Of a stretch of 64,000 nucleotides of DNA, positions 25,562 through 31,919 are shown one piece after another; position 1 is the first letter of the stretch; every line of letters begins with the position of its first letter. The translations under genes and the position numbers were made by a program. Where the stretch lies: the NCBI GenBank assembly GCA_963832575.1, contig CAWHUT010000002.1, forward strand, positions 125,827 through 189,826, in the 5' to 3' direction. The DNA comes from an uncultured Alphaproteobacteria bacterium (GTDB lineage Bacteria > Pseudomonadota > Alphaproteobacteria > ATCC43930 > CGMCC-115725). The notes under the pieces are model-generated. The model saw nothing but the letters and a program-made list of their open reading frames with translations, had not been told where the DNA came from and made no database searches.

Positions 25562-28500
25562 ATGCCGCGCACCGCGAAAACAGCAGATGCCCGGCCTGGC
25601 CGCAACGGCGTGGCGGCGCCCCCGCCGCCGCCCACAGACCACGGCCACGCCGCTGGGGCTAACGGCCACGGCAACGGGCTCATCGGCGATCAATCCATTG
25701 ATGCCCATTTGCTGTTGGACGCCTTGCAGGCCATGCGGCGCGGGGATTTTTCGGCCCGGCTCCCGCATGAAAAAATCGGTCTCGCCGGCAAAATCGCCGA
25801 TGCTTTCAACGAGATCGTCGCCGCCAATGAGCGGATGGCCCAACAGCTCGAGCAGGTTGGGCAGGCCGTGGGCCGCCAGGGCAAGACGCGCAAGCGCGTG
25901 AATTTCGGCGTTTCCATAGGCGCCTGGGGCGAGATGGAGGCATCGCTCAACACCCTTATTGACGATTTGCTGTGGCCGACGACGGCCGTCACCAGCGCCA
26001 TTGCCGCGGTGGCGCGCGGCGACCTGCTGCAGACCGTCGAGCTCGAAGTCGATGGCCGGCCGCTCGAGGGCGAGTTCCTTCGCTCCGCCACCATCGTCAA
26101 CACGATGATCAAGCAGCTCAGCATCTTTACCTCGGAAGTGACGCGCGTCGCGCGCGAAGTGGGTACCGACGGCAAGCTCGGCGGGCAAGCGCAGGTCCGC
26201 GAGGTGACCGGCGTGTGGAAGGACTTGACCGAGAGCGTCAACTCCATGGCCAGCAACCTGACCGCCCAGGTCCGCAACATCGCCGACGTGACGATCGCCG
26301 TCGCCAACGGCGATTTGTCCAAGAAAATCACGGTCGACGTGCGCGGCGAGATTCTTGCAGCTCAAGGAAGTCATCAACACGATGGTCGACCAGCTGCGCT
26401 CCTTCGCGTCGGAAGTGACGCGCGTTGCGCGCGAGGTCGGCACCGAAGGAAAGCTCGGCGGCCAGGCCCTCGTCCCCGGCGTCGCCGGCACCTGGAAGGA
26501 CCTCACCGACAGCGTCAATGCGATGTGCGGCAACCTGACAGACCAGGTGCGCAACGTCGCGCAGGTCACGACCGCCGTCGCGCGCGGCGATCTCTCGCGC
26601 AAGATCACCGTCGACGTGCGCGGCGAAATTCTGGAGCTCAAGGACACCATCAACACCATGGTGGACCAGCTCAACGCCTTCGCCTCCGAAGTGACGCGCG
26701 TCGCGCGCGAGGTCGGCACCGAAGGGCGCCTCGGCGGCCAGGCCCAGGTGCCAGGCGTCGCCGGGACCTGGAAGGATCTGACCGACAACGTCAACTCGAT
26801 GGCGAGCAACCTCACCGCCCAGGTTCGCAATATCGCCGAGGTCTCGACCGCCATCGCCAACGGCGATCTGTCGAAGAAGATCACGGTCAGCGTGAGCGGC
26901 GAGATCCTGCAGCTCAAAGAGACCATCAACACCATGGTGGACCAGTTGAACGCCTTTGCCGGCGAGGTCACGCGCGTCGCGCGCGAGGTCGGCACCGACG
27001 GGCGGCTGGGTGGCCAGGCCAACGTGCTCGGCGTCGCCGGCACCTGGAAGGACCTGACCGAAAGCGTCAACTCGATGGCGAGCAACCTCACCGCGCAGGT
27101 CCGCAACATCGCCGAGGTCTCGACCGCCATCGCCAGCGGCGATCTGTCGAAGAAGATCACGGTCAACGTCAGCGGCGAAATCCTGCAGCTCAAAGACACC
27201 ATCAACACGATGGTGGACCAGTTGAATGCCTTCGCCGGCGAGGTGACGCGCGTCGCGCGCGAGGTCGGCACGGAGGGCAAGCTCGGCGGGCAGGCGCAGG
27301 TGAAGGGCGTCGCCGGCACCTGGAAGGACTTAACCGACAGCGTCAATTCGATGGCGAGCAACCTCACCGGCCAGGTCCGCAACATCGCCGAAGTGGCCAC
27401 CGCCGTCGCGCGCGGCGACTTGTCGCGCAAGATCACCGTCAATGTCAGCGGCGAAATCCTGCAGCTCAAGGAAACGCTGAACACGATGGTGGATCAGCTC
27501 AACGCCTTCGCCGGCGAAGTGACGCGCGTCGCGCGCGAGGTTGGCACCGAAGGGCGCCTGGGCGGCCAGGCCAACGTGCCGGAAGTGGCCGGGACCTGGA
27601 AGGATTTGACCGACAGCGTGAATTTCATGGCCGGCAACCTGACCGGCCAGGTCCGCAACATCGCCGAGGTCGCGACCGCCATCGCCAACGGCGACTTGTC
27701 ACGCAAGATCACCGTCGACGTGCGCGGCGAAATCCTTCAGCTCAAGGAAACGCTGAACACGATGGTGGACCAGCTCAACCGGTTCGCCGGCGAAGTGACG
27801 CGCGTTGCGCGCGAGGTCGGCACCGACGGGCGGCTCGGCGGCCAGGCCAACGTGCCGGGCGTCGCCGGCACCTGGAAGGATTTGACCGACAACGTCAACT
27901 TCATGGCCAGCAATCTGACCGGCCAAGTCCGCAACATCGCCGAGGTGACGACGGCCGTCGCGCGCGGCGACCTGTCGCGCAAGATCACGGTCGACGTGAA
28001 GGGCGAAATCCTCGAGCTCAAGAACACCATCAACACCATGGTCGATCAGCTCAACGCCTTCGCCTCGGAGGTGACGCGCGTCGCGCGCGAGGTCGGCACC
28101 GAGGGCAAGCTCGGCGGACAGGCCGCCGTGCCGGGCGTCGCCGGCACCTGGAAGGATTTGACCGACAACGTCAATTTCATGGCCAGCAATCTGACTGGCC
28201 AGGTCCGCAACATCGCCGAGGTCGCGACCGCCATCGCCAGCGGCGATTTGTCGAAGAAGATCACCGTCGACGTGCGCGGCGAAATCCAGCAGCTCAAGGA
28301 GACCATCAACACGATGGTCGAGCAGCTTCGCTCCTTCGCCGCCGAGGTGACGCGCGTCGCGCGCGAGGTCGGCACCGAAGGGCGCCTGGGCGGCCAGGCC
28401 GTCGTCCCCGGCGTCGCCGGCACGTGGAAGGATTTGACCGACAACGTCAACCTGCTCGCGGCCAACCTCACCACGCAGGTTCGCAACATCGCCGAGGTGA

Positions 28501-31500: not shown

Positions 31501-31919
31501 ACAAGCAGCGCATGCTCGAATTGCTGCACAGCTCCGACGACGATCTGGTCGGCAAGACCGTGCTGGTCGTGGACGACGATGCGCGCAACATCTTTGCGCT
31601 AAGCTCGGTTCTGGAGCGGCGCGGCATGCATGTCTTGACCGCCACAACCGGGGTCGAGGCGATCGCGCTTCTCGACACCACGCCGGACGTGGCGATCGTG
31701 CTGATGGACATCATGATGCCGGAGATGGACGGCTATCAGACCATGGGAGTGATGCGTACCAATCCCGGCCTCGGGCGGCTGCCGATTATCGCGCTGACGG
31801 CCAAGGCGATGAAGGGCGATCGCGAGAAATGCCTGGAGGCCGGCGCCTCCGATTATCTCGCCAAACCCGTCAACACCGAGCAGCTTCTATCGGCCCTGCG
31901 CATGTGGCTGCATCGCTAG
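25562..31919 (+). CDS. Giant soluble hybrid sensor histidine kinase: N-terminal HAMP, 11 x 92-aa HAMP units, GAF, coiled coil, HisKA, HATPase_c, 3 receiver domains. Single +1 frameshift at 26355/26356 as sequenced (pseudogene or sequencing error)
   Basis: The frame of ORF 25562 is protein-like up to VDVRGEIL. Deleting one T in attcTTgcag joins it to ORF 26355-31919 ([14 protein letters not shown]...). H-box [10 protein letters not shown]-boxes DTGIGI and [10 protein letters not shown], and REC domains at about 30.75, 31.1 and 31.55 kb. No TM helix. About 2,118 aa when repaired. Confidence 0.9.
26135..29171 (+). repeat. Eleven in-frame tandem 276-bp units (92-aa HAMP repeat units) inside the giant kinase
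   Basis: The codon starting (E/Q)VT(R/T)VAREVG recurs at 26135, 26412, 26688, 26964, 27240, 27516, 27792, 28068, 28344, 28620 and 28896. The spacing is exactly 276 nt except for the one extra nucleotide of the frameshift. Confidence 0.9.

Follow-up and report, generated by a model that had tools for sequence, protein, structure and literature searches.

By definition, kinase-associated poly-HAMP arrays open with a D1 HAMP and continue as a repeated pair, one non-canonical (C) and one canonical (D2) HAMP; they sit upstream of a GAF domain, a DHp/CA kinase core and one or more receivers in proteins that lack an input domain (PMC13446029). Such arrays are widespread in bacteria, and in fungi and Amoebozoa they are found in the class III kinases (PMC13446029). 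Previous work had termed AskA, AskB and Amb07 group III-like hybrid kinases, and had shown genetic roles in development and in the responses to ambruticin and glycerol (PMC7643160, 2020). Structures of a 6-HAMP and a 4-HAMP fragment of AskA from Myxococcus xanthus are available as PDB 9TRK and 9TRJ (Protein Science 2026, PMC13446029). Here we describe a gene at positions 25562-31919 of a 64,000-nucleotide (nt) stretch of contig CAWHUT010000002.1 (assembly GCA_963832575.1), from an uncultured alphaproteobacterium; the whole stretch is called the window. The gene very probably encodes a member of the kinase-associated poly-HAMP family and a bacterial relative of the fungal group III kinases, and this is the best explanation of the gene, its likely mechanism included.

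Relation to AskA and anatomy of the array

A sequence search of the PDB with amino acid residues (aa) 1-468 of the predicted protein retrieved only 9TRK and 9TRJ, entered as 'histidine kinase, Gcn4p'. Residues 43-325 aligned with residues 46-328 of the AskA 6-HAMP construct in 9TRK over 283 residues with zero gaps (E=1e-115), at 66% identity overall and 82% in HAMP4-6. The order of domains in the window protein, D1 and then C-D2 repeats, GAF, DHp/CA and receivers, fits the family definition of PMC13446029. The family, the di-HAMP repeat, the missing input domain and the kinship with fungi have all been published with crystal structures, and the gene is no new kind of protein. The novelty implied by a first-pass annotation, made from the letters of the window, is accordingly lost to earlier descriptions (PMC13446029, PMC7643160, PDB 9TRK/9TRJ).

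Tandem Repeats Finder reported one array at 26097-29074, with a period of 276 nt, 10.8 copies, 81% matches, 0% indels and a score of 3134. After removal of one base, considered below, the motif [EQ]VT[RT]VAREVG stands at aa 192+92k for k=0 to 10 (nt 26135, 26412 ... 28896), and the ten consecutive spacings in the window protein are all exactly 92 aa. Counting the D1 HAMP and twelve modules, the array has 25 HAMPs and takes up the first 1,203 residues of the protein. The Trp that in this family marks the start of the second helix of a non-canonical HAMP, and the Gly at junctions between HAMPs, occur in every one of the 12 modules, with Trp at aa 122 and 219+92k; the motifs GT(W)KDLT and LGGQA are invariant, and units 10 and 11 are the most divergent of the eleven. 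Pfam HAMP and HAMP_2 each matched eleven times, both on the canonical half of each unit, and that half alone gave E=2.5e-13. There is no dedicated input domain, only a 42-aa low-complexity tail ahead of the first HAMP. No transmembrane helix was found by hydropathy, the top 19-residue Kyte-Doolittle mean being 1.62, inside the GAF domain and in a stretch with Pro, Lys and Gly.

In the output half, GAF_2, HisKA, HATPase_c and the three Response_reg matches all exceeded their Pfam cut-offs. The H-box His and the N, G1 and G2 boxes are readable in the sequence, as are the acidic pocket, phospho-acceptor Asp and conserved Lys of each receiver. MCPsignal gave no Pfam match in the window protein; the output is a histidine kinase. 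The first-pass annotation had described a motif recurring every 276 nt from 26135 to 28896, indel-free save for one base, in a soluble kinase of about 2,118 aa in which GAF, kinase core and three receivers follow the array. The repeat finder and motif spacing, the repaired reading frame with its hydropathy maximum, and Pfam bear out these points in turn. Its eleven two-HAMP units are likewise confirmed, but the total is 25 HAMPs and not 22, since an extra D1 HAMP and a 97-aa module lie upstream of them.

Weak partial Pfam matches to SpoIIID, HTH_6, GatB_Yqey and DUF1759 were also recorded between aa 200 and 1040; these are sums over repeats in which no single stretch passes, and the SpoIIID-like and HTH_6 (RpiR) matches overlap HAMP helices. 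The features of the gene and of its downstream neighbours are collected in Table 1.

Table 1. Features of the poly-HAMP kinase gene and of the genes downstream of it, in window coordinates
Feature	Position (nt)	Strand	Basis or remark
Poly-HAMP hybrid histidine kinase gene	25562..31919	+	2,118 codons plus stop after removal of one base
N-terminal 42-aa extension, low complexity, rich in Pro, Gly, Ala and His, basic at its very start	25562..25687	+	Unaligned to AskA
First HAMP (aa 43-94), the 'D1' canonical type that heads kinase-type arrays	25688..25843	+	Gapless against PDB 9TRK; weak Pfam HAMP match, E=0.0085
Divergent first di-HAMP module (aa 95-191, 97 aa), non-canonical plus canonical HAMP	25844..26134	+	Connector 5 residues longer; Trp122-Trp219 = 97 residues
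Eleven exact 92-aa (276-nt) di-HAMP modules (aa 192-1203), non-canonical then canonical	26135..29171	+	Tandem Repeats Finder, motif spacing, Pfam
Single extra base	26356..26356	+	T of CTT, equivalently the next G; Leu codon 265; frameshift
GAF domain (aa 1226-1362)	29238..29648	+	Pfam GAF_2, E=1.3e-16
Gln/Glu-rich helical linker of about 78 aa between GAF and kinase (putative signalling helix)	29649..29882	+	Assigned from composition
Kinase core: HisKA (aa 1441-1508, H-box MSHELRTP at 1448-1455) and HATPase_c (aa 1556-1678)	29883..30596	+	Pfam
Three receivers (about aa 1731-1830, 1853-1955 and 1999-2112)	30753..31898	+	Pfam Response_reg, 3 stretches, E=7e-61
Downstream partner gene, REC-HisKA-HATPase-REC, 560 aa	31935..33617	+	Begins 16 nt (15 intervening bases) after the stop
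Single receiver	33649-34194	+	Two-component cluster
PAS-HisKA-HATPase-REC hybrid kinase	34191-36005	+	Two-component cluster
OmpR-type regulator	36109-36996	+	Two-component cluster

Kinship with the fungal group III kinases

Phenylpyrrole and dicarboximide fungicides act through the fungal group III kinases (Nik1/Os-1/Bos1/TcsC). This gives the family its importance, as does the puzzle of what a rod of 20-30 HAMPs with no input domain senses.

Two baits were used to search for fungal sequences. An Os-1-like array, used as a query only, was swamped by bacterial multi-repeat fragments and gave one fungal-labelled protein; a bait limited to the kinase junction gave short fragments, some of them JGI-named NIK1, that were at most 91% identical to it. 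Only retrieved database sequences served as evidence for the fungal link. Three window units aligned with protein P0400 at 67% identity with no gaps over 275 aa (E=1e-121). P0400 is a protein of 1,303 aa with the architecture of Nik1, its HAMP units lying 92 aa apart and leading straight into HisKA, HATPase_c and one receiver, with no GAF; its kinase junction shows 67-72% identity with three NIK1-group fragments, among them the JGI-labelled NIK1 fragment P0247. The same three units were 72% identical, with zero gaps, to P0122, which carries the label of a fungus, Dissophora ornata. The last window unit was 50% identical to P0251, a fragment in a group where others carry the JGI NIK1 label, and the two have a common exit, NLR...RNT.

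As judged from these gapless alignments, the window array is homologous to the fungal group III array and in the same register. The gene had been called a bacterial counterpart of the fungal kinases, and this holds for the array; as a whole the protein is a relative and not a structural equivalent, given its GAF domain, its 78-aa helix and its three receivers. The GAF insertion, the three receivers and the bacterial context exclude it from group III in the strict sense. That the window is bacterial is clear from its GC content of 0.65, its dense two-component operons and its closest loci, which are alphaproteobacterial.

One further protein is worth recording. P0361 (2,344 aa, from a representative library) gave the best score for a single unit and has 18 matched units; its array leads straight to HisKA and one receiver with no GAF, and its junction is 82% identical to a fragment named NIK1. 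This suggests, from the sequence, that eukaryote-type kinases with very long arrays exist.

Module number and module identity

A homologue search returned at least 8,000 proteins. The best 120 are annotated as HAMP domain-containing, are 1,917-2,657 aa long and 65-79% identical to the window protein, and span Verrucomicrobiota, Myxococcota, Betaproteobacteria, Bradyrhizobium, Acidobacteriota and Planctomycetota. Species-representative genomes gave at least 600 matching stretches, and the closest such locus among the matches listed is 84% identical in the C-terminal part. With a single unit as query, 6,563 clusters at 50% identity were found, with up to 18 matched units per protein.

Throughout this family the spacing is strict, in line with inter-HAMP linkers of fixed length. 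In the best 120 homologues, V[ATS]xEVG recurs at 92 aa 1,447 times, at 184 aa 14 times, and at no other distance (1,461 spacings in total); arbitrary, non-integral repeat lengths were not seen in this survey, in keeping with the phased units described in the first-pass annotation. The number of units varies, from 9 to 17 in the best 120 homologues and from 8 to 14 in genome loci. Among the 50 loci in which both ends were present, the N-terminal region up to GAF is exactly 11 x 276 nt in 32, with three more reaching this length by extrapolation, and the rest have 8, 9, 12 or 14 units; the module number is integral in 43 of the 50, and most of the others have frame breaks. What is conserved is the structural module and not a universal length. 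A fixed 92-aa phase, invariant in the 120 homologues, together with a variable count (8-18) weakens the proposal of the first-pass annotation that the array is a 'ruler' whose length matters. Since 32 of 50 loci have exactly the same count, 11 (+1), length may matter locally, in the orthologue group of the window gene.

Many related contigs start at the edge of the array (L004, L011, L015 and L025 for example), as poly-HAMP repeats break short-read assemblies, and soil metagenomes and one soil metatranscriptome contained thousands of repeat contigs shorter than 150 nt. The poly-HAMP family is abundant in soil and probably under-assembled.

To compare modules one by one, unit k of the window was set against unit k of 11-unit orthologues. 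Identity was 93-96% in most Alphaproteobacteria (about 92% in two), about 89% in Acidobacteriota and 85% in locus L053; the mean identity between units within one array is 76%. Eleven genomes had every one of their 11 best matches on the diagonal. Even at the 25 positions where units differ from one another, any one unit keeps 85% conservation over 31 genomes. Since the units are positionally orthologous across these genomes, concerted evolution of the repeats was ruled out. It follows from positional orthology that the repeats in this clade are old and individually constrained, and have not been homogenised by recent amplification.

The array is also the better conserved part of the protein, with 85-96% identity to orthologues versus 66-84% for the part comprising GAF, kinase and receivers. 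The ratio of non-synonymous to synonymous substitution rates (dN/dS) was 0.05-0.12 in the array and 0.12-0.32 elsewhere in the protein, at 0.35-0.67 synonymous differences per site. Purifying selection is stronger on the array than on the kinase core. Simple spacer models fit poorly with modules that are positionally orthologous and better conserved than the kinase. We suggest, tentatively and with considerable doubt, that in this orthologue group the array may have been frozen long ago, its 12 modules being individually distinct and not interchangeable spacers. If so, the modules would differ in role, serving for instance as separate docking sites or as graded set-points on a rod, and the array itself would be sensor or integrator; such individuality would go beyond the published view of arrays that are tunable by gain or loss of near-identical modules.

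Over its whole length of 2,100 aa the protein is about 80% identical between Alphaproteobacteria and Acidobacteriota (L029-L035, L068 and L074), the kinase-receiver part being about 73% identical. This cross-phylum identity is unusually high and reflects either extreme constraint or horizontal movement among soil bacteria. A large, well-sampled orthologue group with a fixed array of 25 HAMPs may be of use to those who work on AskA or Nik1.

The single extra base

As deposited, the gene is split into two overlapping open reading frames (ORFs), 25562-29131 and 26355-31919, that read the same repeat in two frames. The junction is GAGATTCTTGCAGCTC, at 26348-26363, and the extra base within it also generates the TTG at 26355 that opens the second ORF. 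All 13 orthologues examined are one base shorter here, reading GAGAT(T/C) (C/T)T(G/T/C) CAG CT, i.e., ATT CTG CAG CTC or a synonymous version. Frame analysis by GC content at third codon positions (GC3) showed that the coding frame shifts once in the gene, between 26310 and 26430; the long frame has a GC3 of 0.89 and the remaining 1,854 codons are open. Across the 64 kb of the window, the GC3 frame plot and the stop-to-stop ORF list gave no second clear frame break, and so general assembly sloppiness is neither backed nor excluded. Contigs built from public runs stop at the repeats, and the runs carry related sequence only. The CTTG context of the junction has neither a slippery heptamer nor a homopolymer run. 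Programmed frameshifting was ruled out, since the slippery heptamer is absent and all orthologues examined at this site are in frame.

Similar breaks occur elsewhere. In 6 of the 50 related public loci the N- and C-terminal matches are out of frame with each other. Motif tracking found single breaks in four of the six (L038, L050, L057 and L067), each at its own site, and a one-codon, in-frame difference in L036 and L042. Four of the six out-of-frame loci come from one series of metagenome-assembled genomes, with isolate names starting 'MFD', which we take to be long-read based; this points to a high base rate of assembly indels in poly-HAMP genes.

Probably the extra base either arose in assembly or is a trivial mutation of very recent date, the gene being otherwise under selection. 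It is possible, though doubtful, that the base is real and the gene a recently inactivated pseudogene, from which the cell would make at most a 264-aa N-terminal fragment with a nonsense tail. The frameshift is, after all, present in the sequence as given, and with no slippery site or homopolymer the CTTG context offers no obvious cause of a sequencing error. The window lineage also has 55-59 private amino acid changes versus 34-39 in its closest relative, L001, but this number is not above those of L003, L051 or L006; the lineage is not consistently faster, being equal to three of six relatives and changing 1.3-1.6 times as much as L001, L005 and, with one outgroup, L002. Also against a pseudogene are the presence of only one lesion in 6.4 kb, the remaining codons being open at the GC3 given above, and a dN/dS of 0.05-0.2 in comparison with orthologues. 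The high base rate of assembly indels in related loci likewise favours an error. Very improbable is a frameshift that is tolerated or used, with translation restarting at TTG 26355 to give a kinase shortened by its first four and a half HAMPs. The TTG that the insertion creates is indeed the earliest start codon in the long frame, and a purine-rich GGCGAG lies 4 nt upstream, but this is a weak Shine-Dalgarno match. The product would open halfway through a canonical HAMP and be without the D1 HAMP found at the head of every family array, a structure seen in no orthologue examined. Nor does the sequence offer a slippery heptamer by which a programmed shift could join the two frames.

Proposed mechanism and input

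If the window protein is built as the AskA structures suggest, it would be a parallel homodimer whose HAMPs form four-helix bundles in close contact with one another, with the conserved Trp of GTWKDLT and the junction glycines forming the contacts between HAMPs. In the published model canonical and non-canonical HAMPs favour opposite helix rotations (x-da versus da-x; PMC13446029), and each 92-aa module would then reverse and restore the sense of rotation. Because rotation would be reversed and restored within each module, only whole modules would be tolerated and the phase would never drift. The array would be a conformationally coupled, possibly strained rod, whose equilibrium could be passed through GAF and the signalling helix to DHp, where it would set the balance between kinase and phosphatase. 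We propose a kinase cascade in which phosphoryl groups would be passed both to the receivers within the protein and to that of the downstream kinase.

As for the input, we give an even chance, by analogy with a proposal made for fungal Nik1-type kinases, to the array itself responding to the physical or chemical state of the cytoplasm, such as solute or osmotic stress, temperature or modification by electrophiles. In fungal Nik1-type kinases, deletions of HAMPs or fungicide-induced stress are reported to switch the output (PMC3848655, PMC6433957). A small ligand bound by the GAF domain is a possible input, if a rather unlikely one, and a partner protein or the N-terminal tail is less likely still.

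The array might instead be chiefly a surface for DNA binding or scaffolding, through segments resembling helix-turn-helix (HTH) motifs that overlap the HAMP helices, and not a relay for signals. We consider this improbable. Previous work read the same partial SpoIIID, HTH_6 and related Pfam matches as DNA-binding (HTH) remnants in AskA/AskB, and found that AskB/AskA bound PmrpC DNA, and MrpC/FruA, in vitro (PMC7643160); and the surface positions of units, kept between orthologues at 85% even where units differ, would fit specific partner contacts. These Pfam matches are, however, far below threshold or summed over repeats, and they coincide with HAMP helices that are buried in the four-helix bundles of 9TRK, and the later authors state that the mechanism of DNA association is not established (PMC13446029). 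A HAMP rod that relays a signal to the kinase stays our preferred account.

Several points weigh against that account. The non-canonical half of the unit had no Pfam match, even at E<=10, and its reading as a HAMP comes only through homology to the AskA crystal structure, such that the earlier claim that the units are HAMPs stood in Pfam for the canonical half and not for the other. The role of the array is still unclear to the authors of PMC13446029, and helix rotation and tension are, even for AskA, a model drawn from structures and not a demonstrated path of signalling. That the protein dimerises, acts as a kinase and transfers phosphoryl groups to the downstream receiver are predictions only. 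The gene as deposited is broken, the first ORF having 264 correct residues followed by an out-of-frame, Arg-rich tail, and no same-strain contig crossing 26356 was found in public runs, the best of which matched at most 0.35-0.37 of the sampled words. A function in the source organism is accordingly no more than presumed, and we know of no experiment on any alphaproteobacterial member.

Genomic neighbourhood

Of the two-component cluster at 31935-36996, only the first gene is kept beside the poly-HAMP kinase in other genomes. In about 65 of 80 related loci, a gene that opens with a homologous receiver and continues as a kinase lies 0-250 nt downstream. The N-terminal receiver is 56-77% identical in the closer loci, mostly alphaproteobacterial and acidobacterial, and 29-47% identical in distant ones; the kinase fused to it varies by locus, being HisKA/HATPase, PAS+HWE_HK or HisKA_3. 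In M. xanthus, AskC, encoded directly downstream of askB, interacts with AskA/AskB, and the AskC receiver interacts with Rec3 of AskA (PMC7643160). A conserved receiver on a variable class of kinase, with the askB-askC parallel, points to the receiver as the conserved partner for interaction or phosphotransfer. This near-universal partner gene suggests which first phosphotransfer step to examine, and the remaining interest of the locus lies in it and in the individuality of the modules.

A scan for promoters and terminators upstream of the gene gave nothing exceeding shuffled expectation, and Rfam gave zero matches across the whole window. The 1.8 kb or so upstream of the kinase (23880-25710) has no third-position GC signal, its GC content falling to 0.61; the ORFs at 24312-25133 and 25130-25471 in this region had no Pfam match and no counterpart in any related locus. 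On the minus strand, 21414-22283 encodes a 289-aa protein with a Tll0287-like sensor domain and a single HAMP but no output domain, and 43 nt on is a Ser/Thr protein kinase gene (19944-21371, minus strand); together, 19944-22283 could be a split sensor-kinase pair. On the plus strand, 12437-12874 comes directly after the open frame 10748-12436 and shares its frame, and is overlapped by 12634-14535 in another, all with coding-like GC3; the segment 10748-14535 may hold adjacent genes or another disruption.

Comparison with known systems

Chemoreceptor-associated poly-HAMP arrays and Aer2 (PDB 3LNR) resemble the window protein in being soluble, in alternating canonical and divergent HAMPs, in tight packing between HAMPs and in equal length of the linkers between them. 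They differ in having HAMPs of groups A/B rather than C/D, in a Phe that replaces the interface Trp, and in their output, which is a methyl-accepting domain and not a kinase. Aer2 was not retrieved from the PDB by sequence with aa 1-468 of the window protein at E<=0.001, and the chemoreceptor (A/B) and kinase (C/D) arrays have been judged independent in origin (PMC13446029). Amb07 of Sorangium cellulosum is, like the window protein, a bacterial poly-HAMP hybrid kinase described as group III-like; its gene is in the ambruticin antibiotic cluster, whereas the window gene adjoins no such cluster and has other two-component genes as neighbours.

The fungal group III kinases share with the window protein the 92-aa di-HAMP module in register, solubility, HisKA/HATPase with a receiver, and the NLR...RNT exit past the last HAMP. 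They differ in several ways. The ascomycete-type example examined has only about 5-6 modules, compared with 12; a coiled-coil region stands at the N terminus in place of the D1 start; the last HAMP leads directly to the H-box, where the window protein inserts GAF and the 78-aa helix (aa 1204-1440); and there is one receiver instead of three. The output of the fungal kinases also goes to Ypd1/Ssk1 and the HOG MAP-kinase pathway, neither of which exists in bacteria.

The closest described relatives are AskA (MXAN_0712) and AskB (MXAN_6735). Unlike these, the window gene has a frameshift, and its host is an uncultured soil alphaproteobacterium without the fruiting-body development of M. xanthus, so that the physiological output must differ. 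The HAMP count is 25, compared with 21 in AskA and 31 in AskB. In other respects the proteins are alike: each has D1 and then 92-aa modules of non-canonical and canonical HAMPs that keep the Trp and junction Gly, each lacks an input domain and a membrane segment, and in each the array leads into GAF, DHp/CA and several receivers. The window gene, like askB with askC, has a hybrid kinase gene directly downstream.

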